A stretch of 62,900 nt of DNA, the filler included, from Hausera hauseri (lineage: Eukaryota), in NCBI GenBank assembly GCA_046269625.1. It is 11 parts of 11 records of this genome, joined end to end, with 100 filler letters (N's around TTAATTAATTAA, not from the genome) between each part and the next. Parts side by side here need not be neighbours in the genome. Positions count along the whole stretch, not along the records: positions 30,729 to 34,852 come from JBJURY010746654.1; 10 more parts are not named here. The stretch is one strand, 5' to 3'. The first letter of the stretch is position 1, and every line of letters begins with the position of its first letter. The notes under the pieces are model-generated. The model worked only from the letters and a program-made list of their open reading frames with translations. It was not told the DNA's origin and did not search any database. Positions 4,885 through 58,340 of this stretch are shown here, piece after piece. The position numbers and the translations under genes are program-made.

Positions 4885-4984
4885 NNNNNNNNNNNNNNNN
4901 NNNNNNNNNNNNNNNNNNNNNNNNNNNNTTAATTAATTAANNNNNNNNNNNNNNNNNNNNNNNNNNNNNNNNNNNNNNNNNNNN

Positions 4985-15876: not shown

Positions 15877-18800
15877 TTATTGAATCACCGATATCTTCTG
15901 AAAATGCTTTGTCCAAAGAGTTGCTACAAAACAGTTGAGTACAATAAAAGATTTGGAAATCAGACAGGAAAACTGAGAGGATGAAGTGAAGCTGACATTG
16001 AAGTAGCCATCACATGACGTTAATAGGGTACAAGGCTCAAAGATGCAGAGTTTAGCACAGAGGCTGAAAATAGGATGGAATTCAGTTGGGTAGTCGTTGG
16101 TGGTTATCAGCGTTGTTCTTTGAAACAAACTGTGACAATGCGCAATGAAATCCATCTGTGTTTTACTTTTCCGTTGACCAATAAAGGAATTATGTGGCAG
16201 ATTATTAGGCCGTTTGTTTTCAAAGAACTCTTTTGGTGGAGCCGGTGGCACTTCATCAAAAGAAGCATCAGTTGTGACCATTTTTCGTCCAGAAAACTCA
16301 TAACTACAACTATAATTTAGATTTGGTGCAACTTCGGTATGAATTCTATGTTTAAGTTTGGATTTTGTTGGAAACACATCAAAACTTTCGTTGGTGACCT
16401 TATGGACTGGTTTAGGAGAATGAAGTCTCATTCCATGAGAAACATCAATTAACGTGTAAGGTGCTACTCTGTAGCATCGATTTTGATTTCCGCGAATTCG
16501 GATACCTTTAGGGAACTCCTCATCACACAAAACTTCAATCCAATGATCACCATTAGACTTTGGTTCGATGCCGATGACTACACTACTAAGGCCAATCGGA
16601 ACACAATGGCATTCGGAAACAAAAACTACTCTGTCTAACAAACGAAACTCGGCGGTTCGATTCGGCTTTGCACATTGCACGGTAAAGTGAGGCACGTAGA
16701 GTTTCTTAAATTCTACTTCAACTTCATTCGTGGTTCGATCAACATTTAGTTTTTGATGTAAATTATCAGCAATAGCTTTCAATATTTCGATTAATGAACT
16801 GCGATGGAATGATGTAATTTTACAAACTCTGCCTTCCGAATGAAGGGCTTCCAAAACCAGAGTATTCTGGTCATTCGTTCTAATACCGTGTCTCATCAAT
16901 AATCGTTTACTGGAATATTCCATAAAGCACTTGAATTTCGCTTTATCGTCTTCGGAAAGTGGAGAATGCGTTACATTGTTAAATTCATCCATTCGATATC
17001 GATTTCCCCTATCTAGAATAGCAGCAATATTAGCTTCCATAAACGCAGGCCAATCGACAAATGCTGTTCGATTTAAATAGTAATCGGCAATCTTTTCAAT
17101 GGTTACTACGTCTTTCGGTGGAGTAATGGTCAGAACCATACTCTGATTTCGTGAACAACTTTCAAAGATCTTGACGTCGATATTGTCCAAGTTATATGTA
17201 TGATTAATGTAACCTAACGTCGGGAACCCTTGACAAATCACGTCCAGACGAACATTCGGAAGCCAACCGAGAACAACTTTATCGAAAGGCAGTCTGAACT
17301 CGTTCATATCAATTTCACAGCACACGAACTCAGATTTCCAATATTTGTACTTCAATGAAGGGCCGTGGATATTACGAGCTGCATCATGCGAGGACATCTG
17401 ATTTGTTTTCGTGGACATAGCATCCAACAGTCGTCGTTCGTCAATGAACGGAATCAGAACAATGGCTTCCCATTCTTGCTTTTTCCCATTTAAGTCAGTT
17501 CGAAAAACCGTTGGATAGAAATCAACAATTGGTGAACTATTATCGAGTATCAGTGGTCGGAAAACATCCGGTAACAATTCACAGCTCTCAGGGGGTAAAA
17601 CGGCCATTAACTGCTCAAACGGCAAGAAAGGAGAACCGTAATCAAAGACTATCGAATCGGATCTGTCGAATTTGAGTATGTCGGATATGAATGGACTGTA
17701 GTGCTGTGGATAGAACCAACTCCATGATGGCACTCCACAGAAATAATAGTAGCAAATCCATTGGAGTCCTTTAACATATTCGAAAGCCTGTTGTTTCAAA
17801 ATATCCTCATTGATCGTTAAACCCATCTTCGTATAATAATAATCCCGTTTGTGAGCCTGGAACTGTAGACGAAAGAAATCATCTTCATCATCACTAGTTG
17901 TATACAAATCCTTTTCGTCCTTGACTAGACATTCAATATTCTCCAACCCGTTACAAGATTTATCTGGATCAAATTCGGACAAATCTTCATGGGGTACCAA
18001 GATTTTTTCGTTGCTTACTGAGTCGACAAAATTCTCATTGTCGAAAAATGTTACGAGATCGCAATCTTTTTCATCACCATTAACATTCTTGTCATTTTCG
18101 TTCATTTCCATTTTCGATTCATTGGCTTGATCATCACTCGAATTAGCATTGGTTGTCGAACCGAGGGCTTCGAGTTTGTTTCCAATTGTCTGACCCTTTT
18201 TACCCATCATCCACTTCATATCTTCGTAAAGATTATTGAAGTGTTTCAAATCAAAACTTGACAGCTCTTTCAAGTAGATCATTAGATTATCAATGTTAAT
18301 TGTTCCATTTTCATTCATATAGCCGTTCATATTGCCGCGAGTCTTTTTGTATGTGTCCCAAAGCAACGGTAGAGCACTCAAGTGGATATGTAAATTTGGC
18401 AGATGGGGTATAAAATCGTTTCCAACCAGAAACGTCATAAGAATCCAATCCCCAATGACTTTCTGAACATCGTACTTATCGCCAAGTGTTTCCGCCAACG
18501 ATGCAAATTCGTAACTAATGTAATCGCGCAGTAGAGAAAGATGGAGTAAATAGAATTTTGATTCTTCTGCAATATATGCCCTCTTATTTTTATTCTCTCG
18601 GGAATAAATAACTTCTTCTCTAAGTAGAGATATGTACGGTTCTTGACTGGACAATCCAAGTAATATTAAATCTGCGTCCAAACCGTAAAGACAGTGTCGT
18701 GTGTTTGGATTGTAGTTAGGAAGGGTTCGGCGATATCTGATGAAATCTTGAATCTTGTGTTCCCCTTCACCGGGTGTCTATTATTTTTAAAATGTATATC

Positions 18801-20520: not shown

Positions 20521-20893
20521 ACAAAATGCATGCATGGGAGCACATTATCACTATTGTGAGATTGTCAATCACAGTAAAAAGACAATTCAANNNNNNNNNN
20601 NNNNNNNNNNNNNNNNNNNNNNNNNNNNNNNNNNTTAATTAATTAANNNNNNNNNNNNNNNNNNNNNNNNNNNNNNNNNNNNNNNNNNNNGATGACATAA
20701 ATGAGGTGTTCAGTGATATTTTAATTTACTAAAGTTGTTCATAAGTCAGCCTTACTCTACCAGATTTTTTCGTGTGGTCTAACAAGGCGTATCGCAACCT
20801 TTGTTGATGGTACATCTTGCCGCTCTACGGTTAGACACTGTAAATAGAAATATCTAATAGCAAAGCGCGCCGCAACGATTACAGTTTACTTAC

Positions 20894-21081
20894 GCCTTAA
20901 ATTCATTCTTGTCGATGACTTTATCTCCGTTGGAGTCAGCCTGAACGAATACTGCATCAATGTCATTCTTGGTGACTTTCCCGTCGTCGTTACGTTCAAG
21001 AAGTTTGTAGAAGGCATCTTCGTGATGTGTGATTGGAGAGATAAACCACGTGACAAACGAAAGAAGAATGATTGGATACAT
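20894..21081 (-). CDS. Secreted EF-hand protein, first coding exon (paralog 2)
   Basis: Signal peptide MYPIILLSFVTWFISP; EF loops ERNDDGKVTKND and DSNGDKVIDKNE; GTAAGT donor at the exon end. Confidence 0.7.
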
Positions 21082-21320
21082 TTTTAGTCATTGTTACTGT
21101 TATTTTACTGCAGAAATGTAAAAATGCCATAATGTTTAATCTTTAGATTTTGTTGTTGTTGTTGTTGTTGATTATATTGTTATAGTTACAGAAAGTCTCT
21201 TATGACTGTCTGCATGAGCTCTAGGCACCTCATCTTTATACACATTGTCGATTAACCATCATATGGAACTCAGGCAGTTGGATGTGATATTGAGCAATCT
21301 GGACTTTACCTCCTTCTATC

Positions 21321-21646
21321 GATAAGATAAGATAAGATGAACATTTTAACCAGGGTTGAGAAATAGGCAGTATTGCTTCTTTATATTTCTACTCTGGGGG
21401 TAGATTGTTACTAGAATTGTTGTCCGGACCGCGGCCGTTAGGCCTATTCTTTTTCGATTGTCAACTGCCAAGAGATTTTTAACGTGCACGACAATGTACA
21501 CGGACGTCCGATCTCAGTACCCAGAGACAGGGGAATTTTTGACTAGAAGGTCCAGGAGAAAAAATCCGAAGTACTTCCACAGGGATTCGAATCTCGTACC
21601 TCAAGCACTAGAGGCGGACGTCCTACTTAACCATAACTGAGCAAGC
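21321..21646 (-). mobile_element. tRNA-derived SINE with a (TCTTA)n tail
   Basis: Minus-strand head has A-box-like GCTCAGTTATGG and B-box GATTCGAATCC. The body contains TTTAACGTGCAC, a motif seen in invertebrate SINE cores. Ends in a microsatellite tail. Confidence 0.6.
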
Positions 21647-22559
21647 TTGTTTCCGTCCCGGAGCTGGATGCTCTTCAGGTTGAGACCTGGCCACTCTATA
21701 CTAAATTTCCACACAAAAAAAACAGACTAAACCTACAGACAATAGCTCGCCAACATTGCACACATCAAAATGAGATAATGGAGCTCCACCTGCTGTCTTG
21801 CCCTACACTTCAGGCCCTAAGACAGATTTTGCTACAAGACAACACAAAGACAGAGTCCTATAAACCAGCCCATCGCTGCTCGTTAAAACTGAACAAAAGT
21901 TGTGATTCAAAGACAGACACGTTGGCAAAGTACATTGTCCCGTGAAGATAAATGAAATTACTATTTGAGGGGAGGCCTAGTCCTCTTGGAAAAGAGGAAG
22001 AAATACACTTCGGTAGGGAATATATACAATGAACAACATGAAATGGGACCTTCCTTTCCAGTGTGACCCGGGCCAACTAAAAAACTTGTGTAGTCTTGCA
22101 TAAATGTATATTATGATATTCACCTGCATCAATTTATCACATTAAGAGTTTTCCGGCACAGTTGGATATTATATTATGACCGTATACTCTTACAGCCAAA
22201 TGATACATTAAAGGCTGATGTGGCTGATATCACGAGAAGCCGCCTTACAATACAACCAAAAATATCTCTGGTAACTAAATATAGCTGATGGAATTGGAGG
22301 GATGCACGGTCTCATGGTTTGAAACACTCTGTGTCTTTCAAGCTGCCTTTTGACAGGTTTTGTATCTCACACAAACCTGGTATAATTTTGACTCAATTGA
22401 TATTTAATATTGTCAACGTAAATGTCTATTTCTGTGTACTGTCCAATCCCCCGGTACATATTTTACTGTTGAAGATGATACTATTATTGATGAATATGAT
22501 TTAGATTATGGAATATAGAAATTAAATATAAATAAAACGTATCACACACAAAAAGTGAC

Positions 22560-22932
22560 CAACTTAAAAAGGCGGGGTCCATTTTATTGAGGGCGGCCTT
22601 GAACTCTTCCTCGGTAATAGCTTCGTCCTTGTCTGTTTCAGTATTCTGGCGAGAGACGTTAGGTATAAACATTAGAGAAATGGTACATCCCGTCTGATGG
22701 GATCATGGAATTTTTGACGGAATGATGGAATGTTTACATAGAATTGTGAATAATTACAAAGACTGATGGAAGGTTAACACAGAATGTTGAAATGTATAGA
22801 TTTAATGAGACAGGACTACAAACGATGGCAATTTAGGTGCACATAAAGCAAAAAAATTGATACAGATAGAAGGACGGACGGATGGACGAACGGACGGATC
22901 AACGGACAGACAGACAGACAGACAGACAGATA

Positions 22933-22963
<31 letters not shown>

Positions 22964-23115
22964 ATTACCTCAAAAAATTCTTCAATCTCAGTCTTGGTGA
23001 TCAGGCCGTTTTTGTCAGCGTCTATTTTGCCAAACAGCTTGGAGTCCAGTTGGCTGTAATTACGGGCAGACAAGCTGAAAGCTGGTAGGAAGATCAAGAT
23101 TGCATAGGAAAACAT
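22560..23115 (-). CDS. Secreted EF-hand protein (paralog 1), exons 23115-22969 and about 22645-22560
   Basis: Signal peptide MFSYAILIFLPAFSLS; EF loop DADKNGLITKTE; GT donor at 22968; CCAG acceptor then ETDKDEAITEEEFKA. Confidence 0.7.
22862..22964. repeat. Compound microsatellite (GACG/GATG)n-(GACA)n-(GATAA)n within an intron
   Basis: Seen directly. Confidence 0.9.
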
Positions 23116-23864
23116 GGTTCTGAAAGTTTAAAAAAAAAATGCATTTATCAAAACCACTTTGTTTTTAAAAGGAAATTTTGGAGTACATCACACAAAGAGG
23201 GACCTAAGGATTTAGATCTTAAGGTTTTGCAGAACGTAATTTGTGAGCAGCACCGTACCCAAATGTTATATTTTCGGTAAATCAATTGTGGCGATGCGAC
23301 AAGACCCGCATACCTCGAGTAATGTTTTTAATGGAGCCGAGCTACCGGAAATTACAGGATGTCTGATGGGATTGCTACCAAAAATAAGCATAAATATATT
23401 CGAGTCCAATAAATTCTAGAATTTTCATGTTTTGGTTTTTTTTTTTTTTTTTTCGAGAAGATACACGAGTTTAATCACCGAAATTATTTTCTCATCACGT
23501 GTATTAACACAGTCAGGCGCGAGTTAGGATAAGAGATATGGGACAGTTAGAAGGAGCAGTAGCTCACAACGACACTTATGAAACTGTGTTGCAGACGAGA
23601 ATTCACTGTGGACAGAGTTTTCGATTTATAAGTTCCTTTTTTCATCGTATGTTATTTTGATTTTTAATCTCAGTTCTATGCATTCATTTAATCCCTAGCA
23701 TCTTCTACCTTACCAACACTCGTCTGTTATTGTGCACTAAAACCCAGCTCAGCTTTATTTATTTCTTCCATTCACTTCTTCTTACACCATGTAATTCTCT
23801 ATCTCTCATTTCTTACTCGATGTAGTTGTGCATGTTGCTGTTCGCCGCGTCCTGTAAGTTTTTG

Positions 23865-26277: not shown

Positions 26278-27716
26278 TTAAACCAAAACCAATTCTTTAT
26301 TTGATGACAAAAGAACCCCATCTGTAATTGTCGGGTTATTTTATTGTAGTGATATTCTTGGGGCGCCAATTCCCTTAACTTCCTTTCAGTATGTTTAGGA
26401 CGCTTAGAACGACAATTTTTGGCAAGTGACAGAAAAATCGAAATTAATAAAATGAGAACAAACGTTGATAGTATATCCAATTGATACTATCGGTAATGTG
26501 GTTAGTTCCATTGGTGCTTGTGCTGTAACTAGAATCGTGCTTTCGTCGTCTATGTTTTTGTATGTGTGCGATTTTGCACGAATTTCGTCTAAGGTGCGCA
26601 TTATCAGTATTCAGATTTGTTTATCTTCTGCGTGTACTTGTATTGTATAACCAGATTTTAATCTTAACAAATTGCGCTGTCTGGTAAGTGTTTTTAAGTA
26701 ATGTGACAATGTGATTATTGTATGTTGTTCGGCAGTTTATATGTATATCGTAATTTAGTTTTTTTTCTACAAAGAACACAATTTTGAATCTATACGCCGA
26801 ATACTTAATAGGTATACTCTGTAATTTTCTTTTAGGCACACTGCCTTGGGTAATGGGTTTGGTAATGGTACTGACTCGAGTGGTCGGATTTTTGGTTGTC
26901 GTTTCTATTGGAATCCTCCATATTTTATTCTTCGAATAATAGGTTCGTAACTGTATGCTCGGTTTGTTTGGCCTCACTTCATATAAGTCACATTTTATTT
27001 TGAATTCCTGGTTTACTGGAAGTTTATAACATAGATGTTGCACGCCCGCACGGACGGAACAGTATTCTATTTTTGGAGTTTGTCCGTTTACCGCTTCGAA
27101 GACAATACTAATTTCTTGATTAAATTTTAATCCTGTTCGAGCATCTACTTGGATGCATTGTTTTTCTTATTTATTGAGATACTTTTTATATTTTCATCTA
27201 ATAACCGTATATCTGGGTCGGTGGATTGTAGAATCGCCGGAGCCAAGGGGGAATAACCAACTGAAGTTGTGGGTTTACTTCTATATAGACTTCTGCTGAG
27301 TCCGACAAATACATGCAATAAGTAAGGACGTAGGTATGAATAAAATCTATGTTGCAGCACTGGGTATAATCTCCGAGTTCAAAATCACAGTTGTCCTCTT
27401 TTTTGTTGCTACATCCTATAGGACAATTTGAAATCTTCCAAAGTCGTGATGCAGTCCTCAAGCTTTAAATCCAGCACACAGAGTCTGGCAAAAAGTAATG
27501 AATCATCATTGATTGTAACAATTTAGTGTCTTTTCAATTTTGGATCTCTTCCGCTGTTGGTTTATTTTCCTTTACTACGTTTTTTTGTTTTAATCCACTC
27601 TTCCAAATTCCATATACGTTCTCTCGCGTAATTTGGTCGTACCATCATTGGGTTCGTGTTTTTGGTATGTAAGCAGCAATTAATAATAACACTAAGACTA
27701 TCTGCACATACGACAT
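26278..27716 (-). pseudogene. Family B ORF-D: type I membrane protein (signal peptide, Cys-rich region, FN3-like domain, TM, tail) downstream of integrase
   Basis: ATG at 27716 gives MSYVQIVLVLLLIAAYIP. TM is STFVLILLISIFLSLA followed by KNCRSKR. Colinear with 38920-39650. Confidence 0.65.
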
Positions 27717-27752
27717 CGGTCTAGCGATAATTGAAGAAGTTTGTATCTCACG

Positions 27753-30628
27753 TCAACGTAAATTGTAACGCTTATTAGGTCGTATCTTCGTCTTAACGAA
27801 TCTTTGTACTGATGCGACTTCTTCCTTACCATTTCTGTTGATGTACACTGTAGTTGGCGTAACTTTAGTAACCTCATAAGGTCCCCTGCCTGTACGAGTC
27901 AGTTTTAATGACGTACCTTTTTTGCTAATGGGTAATGTACATAAACCCAATTTCCTTGTTCCAAAATCGTGCGGTTTTGCTTTCTTAACATTTTGCTTCT
28001 TAAACTATTCTTGATATTTTCGAGATAATTCTTTGGCGATTTTACAGCACTTTTGCAATCGTGTCTGTAGTACTTCTGCAAAATTTTGCTCTAAATCTTC
28101 GGGACTGATCACGTATGGCGTCATTCCTAAATCTGTGAGCAACACAGCTTCACGACCATACATTATGAAAAATAGTGTAAATCCTGTTGCCGGATGTGGA
28201 GTAGTATTGATTGCAAATTGAGTTCCTTCTAGAAATTCGTCCCAATATTTTTGGTCTTTGGCTACTACCGTGGATAATATACGTATAACAAATGCGTCCA
28301 TTCGTTCAACCATTCCATTCCACTGCGAGTGATGGGCGGTGGTAGTTAACTGTTCGATTTCAAATATTTTGGTAATCTTTTCGAATAGTTTACTTATTCA
28401 CCGGAGGTCCATATCGGCAAATGATTCTTCTTACTATAGCTTCGGACAAGGTTTCTGCCTTTCGATCAATTAACGCTATCAAATCGACAAAATGATTTAG
28501 TCGATCAATACAAGTTAAGATATGTTTATTGTTTTTGTGGGTCGTAGGAAGTGGTCCTACGATACGCAATGACATGGCTTGCATAGGTCTGTCGGACACA
28601 TAGATTGGTTTTAATTCCGTCATGTAATTCTTTGTCTTTTTCTGTTTAGTTGCACATACTTCGCAAGCATTTACCCAGTTTTTCACATCAATATAGATAC
28701 TGGGCCAAAAGTATTTATGCAATATTCTTTCTAATGTTTTCTTCCAGGACATGTGTCCGGCCAAATATGAATCATGTTCCTACTTTAAGACTTCAATTCA
28801 ATAAGACTTCAATAACTATCAGCTCTTTTCCCTTTCGCTCATAATATAGAAGGTCTTCGAGACCCTTGTTGGCGATATATTATTTCTTTGAGCTTACTTT
28901 TCTTCCTTACAGTTATTGCACTTATTTTGGTTTTCAATATTGATAGTGCATCGGCATCTACATGTTTATTCCCTGGCTTATACTGGAATTCTATATTATA
29001 TCTAGAGATTTCTTCAATACATCTGTTTAGTTTGCATGTCGGCTTATTTGCTTGTCCTTTTAGAGTCGTGAAGACCTTGTGGCCAGTAACAATTATAATT
29101 TTCTGCCCGTACACGTAAATGTTGAAGTATCGAAGCGCTTCCTTTACGGCTAGAGTTTCTAATTCAGTAACGGAATAGTTTTACTTTGCCTTTTTCAAGG
29201 AACGTCCTCCATTAGGAATTGGGTCTTCTAATTCTTCATCTTCTCTTTCCTGCACGAAATCATATCCAACATATTCTTTACTGGCATCTGTCTTAATTAT
29301 CAATGGTAAATTGAAGTCTGGATATCACAGAACTGGTTCGCTTTTTAAAATTCTCTTCATTTTGTAGAAATTCTCTTGCTCGATGTCTGTCCATTTCCAT
29401 TTAATTCCCTTTTTAAGTTGTCGATATAAAGGTGCATTTATTTTCGAGTTATCCGAAACATAACTGGAATAACACCCACATAAGCCTAGCCAGTGTCTCA
29501 ACTCTTTCTGATTTTGTGGATTATGCAGTCTGATATTTTGTTCAGTAATGATTTATCTGGTTTTGATCCTCCTCCAACTACATGGCCAAGGTAGGATACT
29601 TCATTTTGAGCCAATTTACATTTCTTTGGGTTAAATTTTAATCCTGCTTGTTCTAGTCTCATCAGTGTGTGCTAAATATCTTTAAAATGTTCTTCTACCG
29701 TCTTTGACTCGATCATCACATCATCTAAGTATGCAAAAGCATGAGATAGTCCCATTAGCATTTTGTTCATCATTCTTGTACAAATGGCTGGTCCGGTAGT
29801 AATACCAAATGGCACGACATTAAACTCATAGACGCTACCGTGCATTTTGAACGCTGTTTTATATCGATCATCGTCTTCGATTTCTACTTGCCAGTATCCA
29901 GATTGTATATCCAGAGTATTAAACCATTTTTCTCCGGAAAGCCTATTCAAAGCTTCTTTTACGGACGGCAGCGGAAAAGAATCTTTCATCATAATGTTAT
30001 TCAGTGTTCTGTAGTCAATACAGAATCTTTTTTTTGTATTACCTTTCTTTTTAACCATGAGGATTGGTGAGTAACAAGATCTATAACTGTGTTTAATTAT
30101 ATTGGCTTTAAGCATACGTTTGACCTCTTTTCTTATCTGGAGTCTTAATGAATGTGGAGGAGGATTCCATTTCGGCATATTTTGATCTTCAAGATATATC
30201 TCTTCATTTGAACTAGGCTTCTTTTTAAGCGGAATGGTCAATTTTAATGCTTTTGCTCTACCGATATCTTCGTCATCTTTAGCAATGATTGATTTATAGC
30301 GACACAATAATTCATAGAATCGACAGTAATATTTGAGAGTAAACTTGGTTTTGAAATGAGGTGGAAATTCTGCATACTTGTAAGGCTTTTCTTTAATAGT
30401 TATAGACGACACTTTATAAGTATTACATAAAATAGTATAAAAATGAATCTTGATGGGAGTTGGTGCATTATTTGCTATTCTGATCGGTACATGATCGGAG
30501 TGTACTCTCGTCAATATGTTACTGAGTGTTATATTTGGATTTGATGTCTCTCTTGGTTCAAAATATACCGGCTGGTCGTCATCACGTTGAATTTGTGCGT
30601 AGACTATCATTTCGGTTCTCCGTGGAAT
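27753..30628 (-). mobile_element. Family B pol: RT, RNase H, integrase with GPY/F module (Ty3/gypsy order), degraded
   Basis: RFCIDYRTLN, DIQSGYWQ, PFG, YLDD; TDAS, YSVTELE; H..GH...CEVC; NGMVER; RGPYEV. Confidence 0.95.
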
Positions 30629-30728: not shown

Positions 30729-32154
30729 ATGAGCGACAACCCTAGCAAGATACCAAGACTCTTGACGGCCAGCCAACGTTCTAAATACTTACAAGAAATT
30801 TATTTGAAGTTGAGATGGGAACACGAATGGACCCCTAAGAACCCTATACACAATTTACGCAGCTCTATTAACCCTGAACAGATAGATGGAAAGTACAGAG
30901 GAAATATAAAACCTTATTCCCCGATTCGAACTATTCAGCCAATGGACGAACACAATCTCCAGATTACAGTACCAAAACAGAAGACTGAGAATAAGATCAG
31001 ATCACAAACGACTAAAGAAAAGGAGACATTGCAAGAAACATCAAATGCCCCACAAGAACAGAAAAAAGAAAAAAGACCAGAAACGATAAATAAAAAGATG
31101 AGATTAGAGGAGAAACCCCAACCTAGAAAAACATTATCTATATACAATTACCTATTTAAAAGACGGAAAACGGACGAGGGACAAGAAATAGACAACAATC
31201 AAAATCAACCAAGCACTTCTCAAAGTATAGAACCGTCAAAGAAGGGAATTAAGAATCCCTTAATAACAGAAATCAATACCTTGATAGGCAAAAGAAGCAA
31301 AGAAGATGTACACTATAAAACAAATCAAGAATTTCCTAGGATGTTGGTAGCCACCGAATACTATAGCAAGAAAATAATAAAGGAAGCAATGTTCTTCGTA
31401 AAACTTGCCCCAGCCAGAGAGGTATTCGAAAACACATGTGTGGGAAAATGCTAAAATCGGAACTTATTTTACCTCAATATTTCGTTCCAAGGAAACAAGG
31501 AAAATAGTAGTTCCCGTGGATAAACAAATCCGAGTGTTATTGAAGAAACAATATCAAAAGTATAAGATAGAAGGAAATATTCCTGACCTAGACAAAGATG
31601 TGATGGCAGATTGGACCCTAATCCAAGTAGATTGCGACCCACGTAAAAGCTCCATTAACCCAAAACAAAAAGTGATTCATGGCTACTTATACCAGGATAA
31701 AGACGGTCTCGTATTCGAGCCTATTGAATTAATCATCCAGGTGGATTTGGATAGAGAAGACTGGAACAAGGAAGACAGCGAATGCCCCGTTTGCGAGGCA
31801 AACCTGAGACAAGGTTATGTGGTTCTAGATAATCGAAATTGCCGTCATAAATATTGTCGAGATTGTTTAGAGAAGTGGACACTCGACAATGGGAAAACGA
31901 CATGCCCAGTATGCCGGGCCGAGGCCACAGATTTAAAGTACTATTCGGATGGAAGTTACACACGGGTTGTTCGAATAAAACCCTATCATAGTTATGATCT
32001 GGAAACAAACGTAGTAATCCGTCGAGATCAACAAAACTCCCCTTCAGACTTAACAGAGAGAATGAATCAATTGAGAGATCCTAGAACGTTGGGCGTCACC
32101 TCTTCTGACGCAATAGGCTCCTCCGAGGATGCCGCTCAGGGAGGAGAAATGTGA
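30729..32154 (+). pseudogene. Family B ORF-E C-terminal part: RING-HC (C3HC4) finger protein with one frameshift
   Basis: CPVC...CRHKYCRDC...CPVCR at 31783-31917. Homologous to 40680-42031. Confidence 0.85.
32138..32149 (+). promoter_or_regulatory. Polypurine tract of family B (second copy at 42061-42072)
   Basis: Both copies read CGAGGATGCCGCTC, then a purine run, then TGT. Confidence 0.8.
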
Positions 32155-32784
32155 GAGAATGACAAATGGAATATCGAATACCGAATAGTCGATAATTGTA
32201 AATAATTGGTGTCGGAAAGTGCAGCGGTTATAATTTTAGAATTTTGTACATATTAGAATAATGTGCGCTATTTATCAAATTTTACGATAAATCTACAATT
32301 TTGAAAATTGACTTTTAACCAAATTGGACGACTAATAAACATGTGGAATTAGAATTAAATTGAGAATAAATATTATGTTGAGATAAAGCGAGATAAAGCC
32401 GAGTATATAAGCTGAAGTCAAAATTAGAAGTGGAAGAAACATTTTTTTTGCGACTTAGGTTCGCACAGCTTACTATTTTTCTTGCGAATATAATTGAGTC
32501 AGTAATTAGTGAACAACTTAGCGTTGGTCGAAACCGAATCGATTGAACGATATTTAATTCGAGTTCGAAAGAGAAAACTAAACTTGTGACATTAACGTTG
32601 TGATCATTGGAGATCTTGTGTATCGGTGTATATTAATAAAGGTTGATTTTATTTCGTTGTTAAAATCATATAGGTTTTCTTCATCGGCCCTTAAGGCTGA
32701 TTTGCACTTCCCTAAGGTCAAAATCAGACTCAACTTAAATAGTTAAGACTAGAAGTTTTAACCTAAGGCAATTGATTTTTTACA
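32150..32784 (+). repeat. Family B 3' LTR (right boundary approximate)
   Basis: Starts TG right after the PPT; TATATAA near 32404; AATAAA near 32635; candidate TTACA end near 32784. Confidence 0.55.
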
Positions 32785-32895
32785 CGCAGTACCTGCAATA
32801 CAGTTAAATTTTTTTTAATTTATTAAGGCACAAGCAGATTACTCGAGATCGAGTAATCCTAACCTGCTCGAAGAGCGACTCTAATTCGAAGTAAA

Positions 32896-33129
32896 TATTG
32901 TTATAGTGGGAGAAGGTAAGGGCCACCCCAAACTGTAACAGTTATATTATTGCGGCTGACCGATCGAAAATATTGGATAATGATGATAAGAGTGTAGCAG
33001 GTAGTGTTATCAGTACATCGGATGTTGAAACCAGAAGCACAAACGAGGGCAAGGAATCATCATCAAGATCAACTAATCGTTGTGTTATAGTTCCGGGTGG
33101 GCCCTATACGTCTCCCAACTATAACAATA
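32896..33129. mobile_element. MITE-like element with imperfect TIRs of about 40 bp
   Basis: TATTGTTATAGTGGGAGAAGGTAAGGGCCACCC at the left end vs reverse complement TATTGTTATAGTTGGGAGACGTATAGGGCCCACCC at the right end; TA at both ends. Confidence 0.7.
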
Positions 33130-36100
33130 AATTACACTACAATTTATGATAACGATTACTATGCAAGTTCGGTTTAACGTTCTCGATCTGATTAATGTGT
33201 CTAGTCTTTTTTGCAATGCTTGTATTGAATGCGAAATTGGTAACTGTGTTTCAAACACTTCTAATCCTAATTATTTAAGATTTTACTGTGGAATCTAGAC
33301 TTAATGTAGTGAAATCCCACTTAATGGGCGATGGAAACTATAGATAAATTTACAATAAAAATTTATTATACAAACAAGTAACCAAATTTTGGACGACTTA
33401 CAATGTCGTAATCAGAATATCAATTTCAATGGAATTATATCTCGTATTTTATTTCGGAATCTCGCTTTGATAACACTGAATTCTGCAACGATTGACTTAT
33501 TTGGAATCACACTTCACCGCAATATGACTGCAATACTGATTAAGTAACTACGGTCCGCAATCTGTTCAACTTCAACACCTAATCGTCTGAAACTGTTCAC
33601 TCAACAATATTCAACTGATGTTCGTTAGTTCACTACTTATATCTGCACTGAACGTAGGTGACTTCCTCTGAGTTTGATAAATATTTATTTGTATTTGTCC
33701 GAATTTCGCATGATTTCCGTTGAATAAATTAGTATTTCCGCTGATTAATTTCCGTTGATTATATTAACTGATTAATTCTCATAAAATAAACAGTGTCATA
33801 CAATAAATACATTTTAAGTGCATTTGTCCATTTCTTATGTACATCATCCTCTATTTTCTTATGATGTTCTGTTTTCACGTGACTAGAATTTAAATTTTGG
33901 CCCCAAGCAAAAGAAAAACTTTGTCATAACCCTAATATATGTGTGTGAGTGTGTGTGTACTAATTGATTGGATATTATACAATCAAATGAATAAAACCGA
34001 ATGGAGTTGACAGTTCGTCTTCTTATGACGACATAAATGACTAAATTGGTCCTTTCATCCAACAACATCCTAAAAGTGAATAATGATATCAAATACCCAA
34101 TTTAATTAAAATTTAGTAATGTATTACGTTGGATTTTACAAATCTTTTACATTTGTTTTTGTTGGACAGCGCATTTCCAATAATTTCAAATAGAATTTTC
34201 ATTAACTAAACATTTATGTCTGGAAAAATTTCCAGTAATAAAAATTATTATGCAAAAAAATATTTCTTTGAAAACCACTTCAATTTTAATATCACATCAT
34301 ATTTCATTAATATAATTGAGAGGATTGCCACTTTCTTGGTGATGCTTGAGCATTTTACTCAGATCGTCAGTATTCTTATCCATTATTTAATTAATGGTAC
34401 TAATTATTCAGAAAATGTGAATTATGTTATTTCCATTAGATTTTTGTTATTAATTCGTAATTCTCACGTATAGGATTAATATATCACACCGCGTTAGAAT
34501 AAAGCAGATCAAGGTATTATATTTCATTAATGAATTTTTGTACAAAACATTTGTTGAAATTTGGTATGGGACGATGTTAATAATAAATAAAGTATTTAAG
34601 CCAATAATGCTAACTGATTGGTGGTATATTGTTGGTGTGTCTTACCCTGCGTTTTTCAAGTACCTACAGTGAAGCTCCGTTAGTATGAATTTCTTTCAAA
34701 TTCTCCGAGTTTCGAATTAACCGAAATCTTCCTTTGGGAGCCAAATCCCGTGCAGTAAATTCTGATTTTATTATAGAACACGTTTGCATACCATTTAACT
34801 TACAATTGATTGATTTATACACTTAATATGATGTTGCAAGTCCCTTCTTGTCNNNNNNNNNNNNNNNNNNNNNNNNNNNNNNNNNNNNNNNNNNNNTTAA
34901 TTAATTAANNNNNNNNNNNNNNNNNNNNNNNNNNNNNNNNNNNNNNNNNNNNTAAGAACTATAGGTGAATCTAATAATCAACAAGTAATCAAGGCCAGGA
35001 AGAAGTATGAAGAAAATTGGCAGCAAATGGAAGTTTATCATAGATTAAGAGAACCAAAAACAGAGTACAAAAAGGCTATAGCGCCTAGGAATACTAACAT
35101 GGCCAGAAAGGAAAACCTAAATCCAGTAGCAAAGCCGACTACGTCTTCAAGTGTAGACTTGGATGCAGATACCGAGGTCGAACCTCAAAATAATGACAAA
35201 ACAACATATGAGGTTGAGAGCAAATTCATTGGTCCACTGATACTCAAGATAACCAAATATAGAGGTAAAGGCCCTTCACTTAGGAGAAGATCAGGACTCC
35301 TTCACGATCCCCTATTAAAAAGGATGTAGAAAAGGAGGATGACTTTATCATCACTTTAAGAAATGAATGATGTATGTCCATTACCCCGTAGTGAAGAGGA
35401 ATCAAAAGAGAAAAAACCTGTTAAGTTTGGGAAGATTAGAAAATCTTGGAAAAATGCAAACGAACTAACCAAAATAAGAGACGCACTGAACGATCCCGGA
35501 AGGTCACAGGAGAGCCTACAAAAACTTCAGCAGATGAGCAAACAGTTGGATATCTCTGGGAAGGAACAACAATTCATAGAGAAGATATATAAAAAACTTA
35601 AACCCGGCCCTCACAAGGAGAAAGAAAACATACCTCACGAACTCCAAGAAACGCGGCAAGACTTGATAGGAAGTTGGAAAATAAAATAGAACTGTGGACA
35701 AAGAGTGGGATCGATTTTACGAAAATATGGTGGAATAGAAATGAGCCGTTTCTTGATCAGGTTAATCAAGCGCAAGGATTATTAGACACACTAAAGGACA
35801 ATCCAAAACTAAAACGCGTAAGACGTTATTTAGAAGGATTGATATATGAGATCGAATATGCGATAATTTCTTATCTCCATAACAAGCCAGTATATGAACT
35901 AACTAATGCCGACTTAGAGATATTGGGTATAGACCCAATCGATATTCCCCCTCTAATAGCATTGTGCAGCCTGATAAAGAATAGCCCTCGAAAATACCCA
36001 GATTTAAAAAACCGGATTGAAAGAGAAAACAAAATACAAATCAAAATTAACGACTGTAAAATCGGTGTAGTTCACCCTGGAAGAGCAGAAGCACAGAGAA

Positions 36101-37564
36101 TAATACGCGCTTATCTTCTTGAATTAGACGAGTATAAAGACGAATTCAACTACATGAAACATATCATAGAATTTGTATGAGGGCCAGATCACGAACTAAA
36201 AGAAGCTGTTGAGACATTAAACGAAATAATCTACACTAAACCGGCAATATCCAAACAATTAAAGAAGTGGATAGACTTTCTACCTTCAATAGCAGGGATA
36301 ATAAACGAAAGACTGAGGGAATTCGCCGTGGTTGAACCTATAATAAGAAACCAATTGGAGGAAATGTTACTGGATATCGGTACGATGGAAGAGGAAGCAA
36401 AATTACGAATCAAATTCGAATCATTCCGAGAACTTGAATTTATGAGAAACGACACTAACAGAGATATATAATATGATAGAAGAAAAGGAATTCTACAGAA
36501 AAAGAAGCAAGCTAAGTGATCTTCAGCGAAGTTTAGCAAATATCCGTAGGGTAGGAATACAGAGCCTAATGCAGAAACCGTTGAAGGAAATCTCAGTACA
36601 GGAAACAGAAACGTTAGAAGTATGTAATGATCACCGGATTGCTCTAGCGCAAACAATACAATATTTACAGAATCCAGCAGAATGGACGCCAGGTTTCGAC
36701 CTACATTGCCACACCGAACTAACGGAAATTAGGAAGGACCTTCAGTTGACGAGCGATGAAGCCAAGTTCATAGGCAGGCTAATAGACGCAATAGATCCGG
36801 ACGTCGAAGTATTAAATCAAACACACAAATTAATTCTACTATTAACAGAAATGGCAGAAATTGACGAAATAGTAGCCAGACGACTAACAGATCGAATACG
36901 TTTGATAAAAGAAACACGGTTACGCTCCGAGAAAAGACAGCGCGAGCTAAGCGAATTACTGAGAGAAACAGAAGTTTATAAGAACAAGTATTACCTTACG
37001 GAATCTGAAATGAACGACAAAACGGAATTTATACAGAGATGGCAAAGAGACAAAATCGCAAAAATGATTAGTTGTCGGGAGAAAGCTCTGATACAACCAG
37101 AAGAAATGTACCGATTAATAACATTGATACAGCAATCGTGCGGAAATGGAGACGGATTTAGGATATCCGTAATGAAAACATTACAACCGCAGATAAGAAA
37201 ATTACGCAAAAGAGTCCAGGTCAGACATGCGGCACTATTGAACTACGAGTTACCTGACGCAAATAATGATGCCGAGTGGGATGAATATCTCCTAGGTTTA
37301 ACCGAGCGAAGTCAAAGAACCCCAATACAAATTTATGAGTCACCTACTGGTGCCCAGAAGATGAAATTTAACGTGCAAATACTACTTGATCCTGCGCTAG
37401 CTGAAAGGGAATTGAGCGGTGCATTGAAAACAAACATAAATGAAGATAAGTTAAAAAAATTGATTCCAACTCTGACTAAGCTATACAGTGAAAATACCGC
37501 ATACAGTGCACTACCCAAGCTCCTAATAAGAGAATACGCTAAACTATTGAAAAATAAACCGAAA

Positions 37565-37790
37565 GCGGAAATTAAAGTGAAAGAATCATCCGAATGGATG
37601 AACAATGAGGAATTTGAATGTACTACCTATACCACCGTTGGGAATACAAGACAACGGATAATGGATAAAAATGGTAGGAAAGGAGTTAATTACCGACTTT
37701 ATTTCAGAGGCAGGATATTAAACGAGCTAGAATCCTTAATAAACGTAGGAATTGTACCTTCCGAGGAAAATCGAATAATAGCAATAATTG
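37565..37790 (+). other. Ubiquitin-like domain within family B ORF-A (second copy about 46965-47190, minus)
   Basis: IKVK...TTVGNTRQRIMDKNG..VNYRLYFRGRILNELESLINVGI and TSVGEIKQWIVQNSG..ENYQLYFRGRILDEPELLIDVRI align with ubiquitin [37 protein letters not shown]. No terminal GG. Confidence 0.75.
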
Positions 37791-39702
37791 TCAGTGAACA
37801 GACCAAAGACGAAGCCATAAGAAAGGCACATACAGAATCTTGCGTTGGAAAAATCATGGGGATTCAGGATGCCGCAATGTATTTCGAATACTTACAAACT
37901 GATGATGACAACCCGCAACACGATAAAACTTAGTCTCTCTAAGTGAAACCTTACTACCGATGAAGTCTAAACGACCGGTCGGAAAACCGAGAAAAAGAAA
38001 AGAAATTAACTATAATGCAGACCTAATTAGGAAATTTAGACAACTATAGGTACCAAGCCCGAGTTGAGCTAATGAAAGGCCTAATTAGGATAGTCAATTA
38101 TACCGGACTCCAAGGCGACATATTATCCGAGAAGAAAAGACTAATATATAATATAGCCCGGACAATGAAGATTTCACGATTTAAATTATCTAAAAGCATC
38201 CTCCCTGAAGAAACAGTAATTTATAGAATTATGATAGACAATACGATGGAAGAATTAGGGAAAGTCTTGATATATTTAGCAATCAGAACTTAACCACTCC
38301 GGGAAAACGAATTTGACAAGACAATTGGGTTAGCTAGAAAAGCTGCAAGAAGGGTACCTAAAGAAATAAAATGGACTAAATTGTTCGAAAAAGGGGAAAA
38401 TACAAAAGGAACTAATAAGTTAGAGGATATGATACGAAATATCTTCCCGAACAAAGGAAACGAACCCAATTGGTTAATCAACTTGCTGACGATAATGATG
38501 CTAGTAAAGCAGATAAGAACAGTTACTATATACGACTGCGACAAATTTAATGTGGATTCGAACGTTTAACCACTACCGCGTACCACCCCAAATTTAATGG
38601 AATGGTCGAACAAATGAACGCAACAGTCATTCGAATATTATCAACGGTAGTGGCCAACGACCAAAGGGATTTTGGCGAATTCCTAGAAGGGACACAGTTC
38701 GCGATCAATACGACCCCACATTCAACAATAAAATTTACACCGTTCTTTATGATGTATGAACGAGAGGCAATCTTACCCACAGATTTAGGTATGATACCGT
38801 AAGAAAAGAACCTCGAGGATCTAGAGCAAAATTTTGCCGAAATCTTATAGACAAGTTTGCAGAAGTGTCGGGAAGTTGCAAAAACATTATCATTCGAATA
38901 CCAGATACATTTTAAAAAATAATTTATACACTTATATGAAGTTCAACCGAACCAGTCGAGTATTTACCTAGGAATTTATCAATTGAAAAATCAAATTTGG
39001 GAAACTCCACCGGAAATGACGACAAGCGGAATTACGACTACAAAAATAAATATAACTATTTCTACATGCATCAAAATCGTCTAAAAGAGTGGATTGTCTC
39101 AAAAGGATTTAGAATGATTCCTATAAAGTATTGGACACAACAACATGAAATAACTTTCGTTGTGGAGGAAGCGCTTAATTACGACGTAGAAATAAGCTAC
39201 CGAACATTACATAATAACCAAAAATTAACACAGGCTAAAGGTCGCTATCAAATCAAATGTACCTAATTGAAACCCAAAACAGACTACATAATACAAGTAA
39301 GTGCAGAGAACAGACAAGATAGAACATTTACGGTACGGACTCTAAACGAGATTGTCTTAACAAAACCACTAACTAACGAGGAAACGGAAGAGGAAACTAC
39401 GATTACCGTCAAAACGAAAAAACTAACTAAATGTACAACTTTTTAATAATATCAATTATTGGATCGTCAACATTTGCTCTCATAACTTTTGTTGCGTTTT
39501 TCCGATTTATTGCCAAAAACTGCCGTAATAAGAGTCATAAAATCACCGAGAGGGAATTAAGGGTAATGGTACCGCAGGATGGAATCAATGATAGAGTAAC
39601 TTGACAATTACAGGTCGGGTTATTCCACCATCAAACAAAGAATTAATTCAGATTTAGAACAATACTTTGTTATAGGATTGACCCTTATTTTTTGTTTTCA
39701 GA

Positions 39703-42031
39703 ATGGTAAGTACGGATAGCCGAATTAGAATCGAGGAGTATTTACGGAGACAAGCTACAGTGTTTATTCCAAACACAAAATCTATTTCTAAAAGGATAAC
39801 TGAAGCATTGCAGGCAAAAATCTATGCCGAATTTTCGTAAACCAACGAAATTCCCAATGATCTAAAGGGTATTACAGAGGAAAATCACACGGTTTTCCTT
39901 TAGACAATGCGCGAAGATAACCAAACTAAAGCATATTCCCTAAGGGAATTAATCCGAAACCGACTAGCCAAAATTCAAGACATATACATCCACCTAGCCG
40001 ACGGAGAAATATATTATAGAGTAGGAAACCAAACCTGAAACTCCAATGAAGGGCATCAATATCGATTTAGCACATTTAAAATAAACGGAAAGGGTTTAGA
40101 ACGTATTGACTACGGTCTAAAATTTAGAGTATCAGCCCTTCCTGTTAAACTTATGTTCGAAGTGACCTACACAGAGGGTTGTAATCTACGCTTGCCAGCT
40201 CTAGAATTTAAACAATTTCCAACTGAGGAAAAGATGAACATCGTAAGTCATATAGACTAGTCCAAGATGGTCGTAACGTAAGAATCACCGCGATAAATTG
40301 TGGCAAAGGAAATGATGGATATGGAAGTATCTATTAGAGAAAGGGATGGGGTCGAAATATACTCCACAATCATAAACCCCCGGAAGTATGCTCAAGAATC
40401 GTACGCAGAAGTAACTGGTTTAAGAGAGCAGCTTATAAGAGGAAAAGACAGTAGACAAGTCCGTTCGGAGTTGGACCATTGTCTTTACGGTTGTATGTTG
40501 GCAGGATATAACGTGCAACGATCAGTCGAGTTACTAAAAATATCCGATGCAAATATTGCCGGAATTAGGAAAATAGCCACCCACCCAATAGTCCAAGAAC
40601 GAATGGAGGAAACCATACAAGGAAGAAATCGACCGACCGCTCCAGAAGCCATCTTCACGTTAATGATCGAAGCAATGAACAACGACTCGAGTAGAATTCA
40701 GACTTAACGGCTAGCCAACGCTACAAATATTTACAAGAAATTTATAAATCACTAAAATGGAAACATGAATGGGCCCCTGGAAACCCCATATACAATTTGC
40801 GCAGTTCTCTGAAGCCCGAACAAATAGATACCAAATATAGAAGAAACATCAAACCTTACTCTCCGATCAGAACTGTCCAGTCGATAGGCAGCCACAATCT
40901 TACAATCACCATACAAAACCAGAGGAGAATATAACGGAATTACAAACAATCGGGAAAGGAAACAAAACGCCCAATAAAACGTCAAAGTCTCTAGAAGAAC
41001 ACAAGAATTGAAGCCGAAAACAATAGTAAAGAAACAGAAAATAGAAGAAAAGCCCCAGTCCAAAAAACGCCATCTATTTATAACTACTTGTTTAAGAAAA
41101 GAAAAGATGAGAATCTAAAAGATGAAAACCAACAAATTGAACCAAGCACCTCTCAGAAGGCCAAATCCGTAAAAAATCAGTGAACCTATGATAACTGAAG
41201 TCAATGTCATTAGGGAAGAAGATCGAAGAAAATGTCCACCATAAAACAACTCAGGACTCATCAAGAATGTTGATAGCCACAGAATATTGTATCAAGAAAA
41301 TGATCAAAGAAGCTGTTTTATATCAAAGTTGCCCGGCCAGAGAAGTTTTCGTAAATACATATGTTTGGGAAAACTCTAAGTTAGGAAATTACCTTACCTC
41401 AGCCTTTCGCTCAAAAAGGACAGGAAAAATTATAGTTCCGGTAGATAAAAAAATCCGGATATTAATAAATGAACAATATCAAAGATACCGAATGGAAGGA
41501 AAAATTCAAGATTTGAACCAAGACCTTATGGCGGATTGGACCTTAATACAAGTAAGCTGTGACCCACGGAAAAGTTCCATTAACCCTAAGCAGAAGGTAA
41601 TTCATGGATACCTTTATCACGATGCGCATGGCCTTATATTCGAGCCCATTGAACTGACAATCCAGGTTGATTTAGATAGAGATGATTGGGACAAGGAGGA
41701 TAATGAATGCAATGTGTGCGATGCTAACCTGAGACAAGGTTATGTGGTATTGGATAATAAAATTTGCCGCCACAAGTATTGTCGGGATTGTTTTGAGAAG
41801 TGGACACTCGACAATGGAAAAGCGACATTTCCAGTGTGCCGAGCAGAGGCTACGGATCTGAAATATTATTCTGACGGAAATTACACCCGGGTTGTTCGCA
41901 TTAAGCCCTACCATAGTTATGATCTAGAAGCCAACCCCTCACGAAGTCAAAACCAACCGGATTCCCAAACCAACTTACGAGAAAGGATGGAACGGTTGAG
42001 GCGACCAAAGACGCTAGGCGCAACTTCTTGA
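39703..42031 (+). pseudogene. Family B ORF-E full extent: about 780-codon protein ending in RING-HC
   Basis: ATG at 39703, right after a polypyrimidine/CAG acceptor, is in frame (through several stops) with ORF 40300-40707 and continues via frameshifts to the RING at 41708-41842, where the 7th ligand is C>F. Confidence 0.65.
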
Positions 42032-42399
42032 CGCAATAGGCTCCTTCGAGGATGCCGCTCAGAAAGAAGAGATGTAACAGTGCTGGACTATANNNNNNNN
42101 NNNNNNNNNNNNNNNNNNNNNNNNNNNNNNNNNNNNTTAATTAATTAANNNNNNNNNNNNNNNNNNNNNNNNNNNNNNNNNNNNNNNNNNNNCGAATTAA
42201 CCAATCAGCATGCGAGACGCTTGTGATTGGTCAATTGGTGCGTGGGTGGACCCCCCCCCCTCCCCCCTTGTTCCAGAAACGCCTTTTTCCCCCTACTTAG
42301 GTAATATCAACATAGGCCTAGCCAATGACTTAATTCTTTTTCGTTCTCAGGCTCCATACAGTCCGAAATTTTGTTCAACAACGATTTGTCTGGCCTTGA

Positions 42400-44209: not shown

Positions 44210-46270
44210 TTAGTTGCAGTCCTCGTATAATGGCGCCGAAGGGGGCAGCATAGGCAGAGGCGATTTTAAGACATAGTACTCCTTATGCTTGCATATTTTG
44301 GAGACCACGTCTCCTCCCTTAGGCTCATCATCATCTGAATTATTTCTTCGTAATTTCATATCCCTTTGTCCTATGAAGAATACGGGTTTTCTTTTTCGTT
44401 TTCGATTATAATAGACAACATGTCTCTCAACATCGCTTTTCCATCTGCTCTCTTCATACGTCTTCAAAAATTTTCAAAGGGCTTTATAATCGCTGACAAA
44501 ATTTTACACGAAAATCCAGTTAAGGCAAATATTTCATAGCCATTTATAACGGATTGAATTACTGACTTAATGAGTTGTACTAAAATATAGATAACTAAAA
44601 ATTCAGATGCAGCTTGTCCTCAAATTAAAAATCTTCCCCAGATCTTGTATAATATCTCCGTGGTGATTCTTTGATAATGATTGGAACCAAGTAGAAATTC
44701 CCATTTTGCTTGATAGATAGTACTATCTATTACCGTTGACATAGCTGTATTCAATTCATGTGTACGCTGACGATAGAAAGCTGGAAACTGTCTAAAAGCC
44801 TCAATTTCCTTTGGTCTGTAAATTCCTTTGCTCGCGGTATCAGAAAACTTATCATCCGTTATACCTTTTAACAAATTTGTCCCTGTTAGTTTATTAGGCG
44901 TGGCTATTATTCTTCCATTTGGCAGGCTTAGCCAATCTATCTCACTTTTACTAAACATAGGTTCGCCTAAACCTGATTTACATTCCTTCAAAATCGTTGG
45001 CTGTGTTGAATTTTCCAATAAGACTCTCGTAAGTGGCATGGCTAACCGAGGTACGTTCTGGTATAGAACTAGCAATACTTGCATACAACGTTTCTCTTCT
45101 ACGTTTATGGATACATCCCGTCTTTTGCATTCGTGTGTTAACAGAACTTCTCCGGTGACTCTTCCGAAAATACCTTCTTTTATGGGGATCACAGGCACTG
45201 CTAGATCCGAGTTGGCACATATTAAGGCCACTATGGTCCTCATAATTTCTGTGTCCAATTTACAGTTATTTGCGATTATTTTGTGACATAATTCTGCTAT
45301 TTCGGCTTGTCCTTTATAATAAAAAGAATCGTCTCTATTTTTCAAGTAATCTTCTATTCTTACCTCTTGTGTTTCCAATGAATAAGTAGTTATTGCAGCT
45401 TCTGCTACGAAAAATGCTTCATAATTGGTGGCACACATCACTACGTTACATCAGGGGAGCATTTGTTTCTTAATAAACTTTAACCCATGATCATCGGAGA
45501 TTAATATCGTTGGTGTGGAGTGTTCGGTCACATCCTTCCTTGACCGAGCATTATTATCTATCGTATCCACATATCTTTTCCCCGTGGTTTCGTTAAAACT
45601 AATCTCTTTTATTTTAATGAAATTACAGCCACTCGCAGGAAGTGGAATCCAATTAATTATTGAATTGCGGAAAGTACAGGCACCATCTTGAATATGACAC
45701 TTCTGGTTTTCGGTATATACTTTCGTAACACTATGAAACATCACCTTTTGATTTCTCATTTCTGTCTCATAAAAATCGACTACTCCTCCTCCTTCTTTTC
45801 CTCTTCCAGTATCGTATTCACCTCCCTTACAGTACCCGGTTTGAATATGTAGCTTTTTAATTGCTACTTTATATACCCTAATTATTCTTCCCTACTCCAC
45901 ATCGTCCCACCTCAATCTTCCGGTTTCTTTAACTGGTTTACACTATTGTCTGTCTAAATCCATGGTAATTAGCGGAGTAGTTGGTTTTATTATTGATGAA
46001 TGTCCGTGCATGTTCCCACAATGAAAAATGCTTCAAGATCTGCGTAACATGCATTCTATCCCGTCTACCGCAATCAACTTGCGTTGATGATACAAAAAGT
46101 ACTTTTTCTCAACGGTTACTAACTTGTGAGGTCTGGCGTCCTCGCACATTTCTAAATCCATCAGAGAATATTTCTGACCTAGCTTGAATTTATCACAGCC
46201 GTACACCGTGATTTCTCCCAGTTGTCTTATTAGCACCATGAGCGTTATTAATTTAATCATCCAATTCGGT
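44210..46270 (-). pseudogene. Family B envelope glycoprotein, chuvirus/Jingchuvirales-like (class III fusogen type)
   Basis: Signal then VYGC..YSLMDLEMC; C....FHCGNMHGHSS; C...ETG; GYCKGGEY; C...DGAC; C.LDTEI; G.FGRVTGEVLLTHEC; CMQVL.V; PLTRVL; SKGIY; W.RFL.*G...LVIYILVQLIKSVIQSVINGY TM region. The Cys spacing and motifs match chuvirus-type glycoproteins as I recall them. Confidence 0.8.
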
Positions 46271-57729: not shown

Positions 57730-58340
57730 TGCACAAAAATGCCACTTAGGGTGCAAATTTTAAAATCAGAGATATTATACAGATAACGTTATTTGCACAT
57801 ATCGTGCAAAATTCAGACATAATGCACGCAGATGCATTCCTGGTTGCACTTTGAAAAACAAATCTCATCATGCAAATGACGAACACACAAACCTCCCTTC
57901 TAACAGCCGCCCTGTTTTTCCTTTTTCAAAGAACTAATTTCGCCGCCAGTACTCATGGCAGAGTCTGGCAAAGGCAACTTCTATACTACTATCTGCCGAC
58001 ACACTTATTTTGCAGTTTTTTCACTAAAGGCTTCGATAACCACACCAACAACTCAATCCATAGATTTCCTTATCGACACAAGCGCTGTGGTTTCTCTGCT
58101 ACCACTCACTTTCCATGTACAAAATTCACCATTCAAAGCTAAATTGTTATTTACGGCTTCGGGAGAACCGCTAGACATTTCTGGTGTATCTAAATTGTCT
58201 TTCACCTTACCAAACTTCCAATCCATGTTTCATTGGACGTTTACTGTCGCTAACGTCCGTACTGCAATCCTAGGTTCGGATTTCTTATCGCACTATAATC
58301 TTTTAGTTGATTGCAAACAACAATGTCTGAAACGTAACAC
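57730..58340 (+). mobile_element. Family A gag end plus protease fragment
   Basis: Knuckle remnants, DFLIDTSA and AILGSDFL; very similar to 52300-52720. Confidence 0.9.

Follow-up and report, generated by a model that had tools for sequence, protein, structure and literature searches.

The window analysed here, 62,900 nucleotides of DNA from Hausera hauseri, contains a broken accessory gene that reads as the last ORF of an env-bearing Gypsy element, and the intact protein was, on balance, probably a ubiquitin ligase that used E2 enzymes of the host. Its RING finger is not a stand-alone gene but makes up the final third of an accessory ORF that measures about 800–870 aa. We compared two copies, copy 1 on the contig at 30729–34852 and copy 2 on the contig at 34953–42092. 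The window joins 11 contigs with N spacers between them, and the two copies are not genomic neighbours; the spacers share a fixed 12-base core, and repeats that cross them are artefacts. The RING-ORF region is highly repeated, with 3308 public contigs aligned in one search (run X1). We are highly confident of the architecture and the carrier as described below.

The RING finger and its accessory ORF

Copy 1 encodes the complete C3HC4 RING finger announced in the preliminary description (31783–31917, plus strand). All eight zinc ligands (8/8) are in place with the spacing C-x2-C-x15-C-x-H-x2-C-x2-C-x12-C-x2-C, a Trp lies in the central helix and an Arg follows the last Cys. The domain passed four Pfam RING models at cut-off, zf-RING_2 (E 1.8e-9) and zf-C3HC4 (E 2.3e-8) among them, and a fold search with a three-sequence model returned the RING fold at Z 5–6. 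A related protein, P0001, also has 8/8 ligands and the Arg after the last Cys, and copy 2 has 7/8, the seventh being missing. Copy 1, copy 2 and P0001 all retain the loop-1 Val, the helix Trp and the Arg after the last Cys; we take these to be E2-binding positions, with the Arg that follows the last Cys as the linchpin. The adjoining post-RING segment (31918–32007, plus strand) is 93% identical between copies 1 and 2, compared with 85% for the RING, and is probably part of the RING unit.

Ahead of the RING is a pre-RING domain of ~110 aa (31444–31779, plus strand; omega 0.05) that has no family match and is modelled, at low confidence, as a helix followed by strands. Among 138 proteins and 14 loci compared it matched P0001 alone, and no cellular protein matching it was found either there or among 1.84 billion representatives. 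P0001 predicted alone gave a pLDDT of 31, while the three-sequence structure model had a mean of 49 and was confident over the RING only. Three fold searches gave RINGs only; the model of the pre-RING domain is of low confidence, so these searches probed that domain weakly.

The accessory ORF runs in the order N-terminal domain, ISG20-like exonuclease fold, charged linker, pre-RING domain and RING. Nuclease and RING are fused in P0001, an 870-aa protein in one open frame that is ~49% identical to copy 1; the intact fusion is known from this one protein sequence. P0001 aligns in order with copy 1 at 30729–31427 and 31408–32151, and with copy 2 at 39730–40698, 40704–41030 and 41213–41938, the match covering the whole region from 39730 to the last ORF codons. 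The stretch 31405–32154, originally presented as the RING gene, turned out to be a stop-to-stop fragment: a break in the reading frame somewhere within about 31420–31445, just ahead of the pre-RING domain, separates it from an upstream, out-of-frame piece of the same ORF (30729–31454, plus strand), which is cut by the contig start and carries the end of the exonuclease-like domain, the Lys/Glu-rich linker and a kept basic patch. A programmed frameshift in copy 1 was rejected, as copy 2 and P0001 are in frame and read through at the same place. In copy 2, the N-terminal domain and ISG20-like pseudo-exonuclease (39730–40698, plus strand) contain 6 stops, and the remaining pieces (40704–42031, plus strand) include the RING at 41708–41842. 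This copy, first noted at 41204–42031, does keep the conserved peptides, but it has lost ligand 7, has 8 stops plus several frame breaks ahead of its RING piece, and its RING frame ends at a stop (42029–42031) short of the purine tract. Both window copies are decayed, and the RING ORF is broken in each.

Searches for relatives of the protein gave none of near-equal length (0/93 candidates) and one among longer proteins (P0001, from 487 candidates). Pattern matches in viral contigs did not hold up (0/5 and 0/8), nor did any metagenome contig compared with the RING alignment (0/589). The 1.84 billion representatives yielded 114 matches, namely P0001, seven proteins like its N-terminal half and, for the rest, RINGs. 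Pfam RNase_T matched 4 of these seven, and a PDB profile search with the P0001 N-terminal family found ISG20L2 (E 6e-16), ISG20 (E 7e-10) and also SDN1; the extra N-terminal domain had no PDB match. The middle domain belongs to the same fold family as the DEDDh exonucleases ISG20 and ISG20L2 (PDB 1wlj, 7yw5), but compared with these the accessory ORF adds the N-terminal domain and the C-terminal RING and lacks the catalytic acids. Both motif I acids are kept in all 11 distant-locus ORFs checked (11/11) and are missing from P0001, P0002, P0004 and P0041; the motif II acid is missing from P0001 and from copy 2, in which motif I was destroyed by stops and is hence unreadable. Motif III was compared by eye, the search pattern having matched 0/11 intact loci. 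Judged by the acids of motifs I–III, the fusion lineage is not a catalytic DEDD exonuclease. It is likewise not an intact DEDDy-type nuclease, for its best solved relatives are ISG20-type and the catalytic acids are gone. Copy 2, P0001 and P0002 form one clade (100/99). The grouping of all five acid-less nucleases reached 58/83, which falls short of showing a single origin.

The carrier element and its distant relatives

The carrier is a Gypsy-type LTR element with an env-like gene, at least about 15 kb long by summed spans. Its gene order, pieced together from three overlapping contigs that are different copies (68–73% alike in shared DNA), is ORF1 with a ubiquitin-like domain, fusion protein, pol, membrane-type ORF, nuclease-RING ORF, purine tract and LTR. 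In this family pol has the order RT, RNase H, integrase (27756–30628, minus strand), and its contig (26278–30628) has integrase and membrane-ORF sequence in common with the RING contig, which links the two. Between the integrase and the nuclease-RING ORF lies a decayed ORF, signal-like at its start and membrane-like at its end (26280–27752, minus strand); its 3' part matches 38932–39656. The contig at 42193–50053 has the order ORF1, mononegavirus-type fusion protein, RT, and the Env-like piece between ORF1 and pol (44623–45450, minus strand) falls in the Monjiviricetes fusion glycoprotein family (E 1.6e-14). A protease motif ahead of RT was a by-eye sighting only, and gag was not seen in the window pieces, which include no 5' end. 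When RT was searched, 17 of the 18 matches were unnamed entries. The contig of copy 2 (34953–42092) has two internal deletions, which join ORF1 to integrase near 38555 and integrase to the membrane ORF near 38930.

The ubiquitin-like domain lies in ORF1 on the contig of copy 2 (37562–37801, plus strand), where it is a weak match and has no di-Gly, and in another copy (46957–47196, minus strand), where Pfam ubiquitin matched below cut-off (E 0.005). Against the PDB it drew mostly ubiquitin-family matches, weak for single domains (E 0.02 or worse). It is about 4 kb from the RING, even in the internally deleted copy, and in a different ORF. We saw no E1 or E2 in the element, and the RING would therefore need host enzymes. 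The proposal that the element carries its own ubiquitin-system module is thus not supported: the ubiquitin-like domain sits in the separate ORF1, has no Gly-Gly, and no E1/E2 accompanies it. A BCL2-like helical region suspected downstream of this domain had no match. The decayed ORF1 pieces scanned, which lack the 5' part, gave no match to MATH, BIR, ankyrin, BCL2 or dUTPase.

At its 3' end the RING frame of copy 1 crosses the polypurine tract (32138–32149, plus strand; 12 purines) and stops at 32152–32154, inside an LTR that starts with TG at 32150. The early claim of an ORF ending across this junction is true of copy 1, and the RING ORF, with the purine tract and LTR at its 3' end, lies inside the LTR-bounded unit rather than outside it. 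We read 32150–32940 (plus strand) as a 791-base 3' LTR (TG...CA, with CA at 32939–32940 in the window) that contains the ORF stop codon; its middle is variable across the family and its last ~150 bases are conserved. Public contigs turn unlike at 32152 (103 in run X1, 9 in run X2), a block at about 32783–32930 is common to family contigs, and 61 X1 contigs turn unlike near 32931; run X1 is possibly the source of the window itself, and so is not independent support for the boundary. Across the LTR middle (32153–32780) contig depth drops about 80-fold, both LTR ends being shared. The LTR of copy 1 has a TATA-like motif at about 32404 and an AATAAA at about 32635, and seven frames within and beyond it gave no Pfam match. 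In copy 2 the purine tract (42061–42072) and the first 20 LTR bases (42061–42092 together, plus strand) run to the contig end. Just before the tract, a 30-base stretch (32110–32139, plus strand) is 29/30 identical to copy 2 (42033–42062) and is likely a cis signal that overlaps the ORF tail. A stable hairpin at this place was rejected, as folding was no better than in shuffled sequences (z -1.5 and -0.5).

In distant relatives of the element the last ORF still encodes a nuclease that looks intact. Scanning metagenomes with the intact-nuclease family produced 451 pattern matches, from which 14 loci were obtained. In two of the 14 (L002 and L004) a full TRAF gene and separate ORFs for RINGs lie upstream of the nuclease ORF; most of the other loci are too short to show an upstream cassette. 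The cassette (L004 1–6727, L002 54–4652) comprises a C3HC4_3 RING ORF, a full TRAF gene (RING, zinc finger, MATH) and coiled-coil ORFs, L004 also having two RING-H2 ORFs, and the ISG20-like nuclease of both loci keeps the motif I and II acids. With RING and TRAF genes thus standing beside the nuclease ORF in L002 and L004, ubiquitin ligases, as predicted from these genes, recur in the 3' cassette of such elements. Since the RINGs of the distant loci are no nearer to the window RING than unrelated RINGs are, the nuclease-RING fusion may be an independent RING capture. In L001 an LTR-like stretch comes after the nuclease ORF, and then a primer-site-like motif and a zinc-knuckle gag (1344–6784); this order suggests that the element is in tandem or circular form there. 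At the position of the purine tract before the LTR there is a C run in L001 (about 3015–3035), L002, L003 and L004, and a G run in L005. ORFs that begin signal-like and end membrane-like precede the nuclease ORF both in the window (26280–27752) and in L006 (1–1512), with no mutual sequence similarity found.

The window also holds unrelated material. On the minus strand, an XRN1 frame at 15877–18777 (966 codons uninterrupted, four Pfam domains) is an intron-poor gene or a retrocopy, and short EF-hand coding pieces at 20893–23127 are probably exons of a host calcium-binding gene. A second Gypsy family is present in several decayed copies (2236–3096, 5013–8795, 9691–10552 and 51526–58340) with RT, RNase H and integrase matches; except in RT, it shows no relationship to the RING element.

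Selection on the accessory ORF

Copies 1 and 2 are identical at 169/232 residues. The near-identical peptides pointed out earlier (ADWTLIQV. and TDLKYYSDG.) are present in both copies, the Lys/Glu-rich linker does diverge between them, and changes are concentrated at third positions as had been reported, with 42/25/102 differences at codon positions 1/2/3 over 217 codons. On the same 217 codons pN/pS was 0.21 (bootstrap 0.16–0.27), and maximum likelihood gave omega = 0.084 with 2dlnL = 130.5 against omega = 1. By part, the RING had an omega of 0.095, the pre-RING domain 0.050 and the tail 0.33. These omega values are rough, synonymous sites being near saturation (pS 0.67), and we left out the codon-model rows for an integrase control (wrong frame, 22 codons) and for runaway post-RING and pre-break fits. 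Other copy pairs of the same family served as controls, in which RT had an omega of 0.081 and the ubiquitin-like region one of 0.093; the second Gypsy family gave 0.164.

Purifying selection, as first proposed, is therefore borne out by an omega far from 1, but the RING is not special in this respect: because its omega equals that of RT and of the ubiquitin-like region, the constraint shows usefulness to the element and nothing particular to the RING. Since both copies are dead, this selection acted between subfamilies in past active lineages and predates the decay of the copies seen here.

Possible functions and known counterparts

Judged by what is established about RING biochemistry, the retained Val, Trp and Arg are consistent with an active E3 working through host E2s, and on this sequence evidence the ancestor quite likely encoded one; the linchpin Arg has been described as stabilising E2~Ub (PMC12326332). 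One could instead picture the RING as a non-catalytic scaffold for oligomerisation or a ribonucleoprotein body, with the whole protein, made up of dead enzyme folds, serving as an RNA chaperone or export factor. Its nuclease is indeed already a pseudo-enzyme, and the post-RING segment is more conserved than the RING (93% vs 85%). However, the E2-facing residues are kept in three sequences despite P0001 being only ~49% identical to copy 1, and we regard a scaffold as improbable. Still further from the data is a RING that is an unused, captured fragment of a host gene, or one that belongs to a domesticated host gene. Comparison of the element copies gives an omega far below 1, the region recurs many times (the 3308 contigs of run X1), neither copy is intact, the reading frame terminates within the LTR and the pre-RING domain had no cellular match among the sequences compared, so that this reading is largely refuted and very improbable.

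An active ligase might also serve the element's own products, acting in the turnover or sorting of ORF1, Env or the membrane protein or in particle release, and perhaps docking on the ORF1 ubiquitin-like domain; of the alternatives this comes closest to the earlier module idea. The ubiquitin-like domain and the RING share one contig (34953–42092), both are constrained (omega 0.093 and 0.095), and the element has an Env-like ORF and a second membrane ORF. Yet the two domains lie in different ORFs, the ubiquitin-like one without a di-Gly, and fusion to a nuclease fold would point to RNA complexes more than to membranes. We consider an own-product ligase unlikely.

For a ligase directed at a host protein, we propose that the dead nuclease and the pre-RING domain would bind RNA or an RNA-processing complex. 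The RING, borrowing a host E2, would then ubiquitinate a protein held at that complex, the likeliest candidate being a host factor for silencing or decay of the element's RNA. The binding step is argued from analogy and more weakly than the E3 step: the dead nuclease may still bind RNA or a partner, in the way that DEDD derivatives without activity are described as doing in piRNA biogenesis (PMC5408684). That the RING was aimed at a host defence at all is possible rather than probable. A putative anti-silencing role is plausible, although the evidence points to no silencing factor in particular, and the RING and TRAF genes of the relatives could equally suit signalling or cell-death control. 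The most specific version, an RNA-tethered degrader in which the dead ISG20-like nuclease would engage piRNA or RNA-surveillance complexes of the host as decoy or adaptor, for the fused RING to destroy, we put forward as a rather doubtful proposal.

Viruses offer one comparison. ICP0, IE2, PE38 and poxvirus p28 are viral RING E3 ligases. Like the accessory ORF they place a C3HC4 RING on a mobile element, host defences being its plausible target, but similarity is confined to the RING, with no fold match at E 0.001. Since ICP0, IE2 and PE38 score like any RING in our model-based fold searches, they appear to be analogues and not relatives.

Among retroelements, the planarian Burro/GYPSM1 elements resemble the carrier in the position of the weakly matched ORF1 ubiquitin-like domain and in a mononegavirus-type env ahead of pol, and the carrier does have such an env between ORF1 and pol; this likeness is one of layout. 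They also bear a motif named AIR1, which we take to be zinc knuckles. What the Burro review calls 'RING' is this AIR1 motif within the polyprotein, and the passages cited here name no 3' nuclease-RING ORF, unlike the RING element described here (PMC6431247). According to the same source, Burro/GYPSM1 has a ubiquitin/SUMO-like domain, a mononegavirus-type env, then protease and RT, with an internal region of up to 25 kb, and is characterised by MATH, BIR, ankyrin, BCL2-like and dUTPase domains in one ~5000 aa polyprotein (PMC6431247). Its MATH/TRAF and BIR domains count among extra domains tied to ubiquitination, and ubiquitin-like domains in giant Gypsy elements were already described there (PMC6431247). 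A MATH/TRAF accessory ORF occurs both in the distant loci L002 and L004 and in one Burro-like element (PMC6431247). The bdelloid rotifer LTR retrotransposons Juno and Vesta, for their part, are reported to carry a DEDDy ORF3 after pol that keeps its catalytic residues and has a proposed role in RNA processing or silencing (PMC5408684). They share with our element a DnaQ-superfamily 3'-5' exonuclease as an extra ORF after pol, whereas the nuclease here is ISG20/REX4-like, without catalytic acids and fused to a RING, a term that occurs 0 times in the rotifer paper (PMC5408684).

Ubiquitin-system domains in Burro elements and 3' exonucleases in rotifer elements were thus already known. A nuclease-RING fusion in a retroelement was not found in the literature searched, and the original Burro description may already contain such an ORF. 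To our knowledge, proven counter-defence proteins are common in viruses and rare in animal LTR retrotransposons. Against this background, the constrained RING with its dead antiviral-type nuclease is a small, testable candidate for counter-defence. If the degrader reading is true, the accessory ORF would represent one variety of a 3' cassette for ubiquitin ligases (RING, RING-H2, TRAF) that occurs throughout a little-known group of large Gypsy elements with env, and an element protein would play the part that Vif or ICP0 plays in viruses. Judging from the sister cassettes, which have TRAF and several RINGs, a whole clade may invest in ubiquitin ligases.
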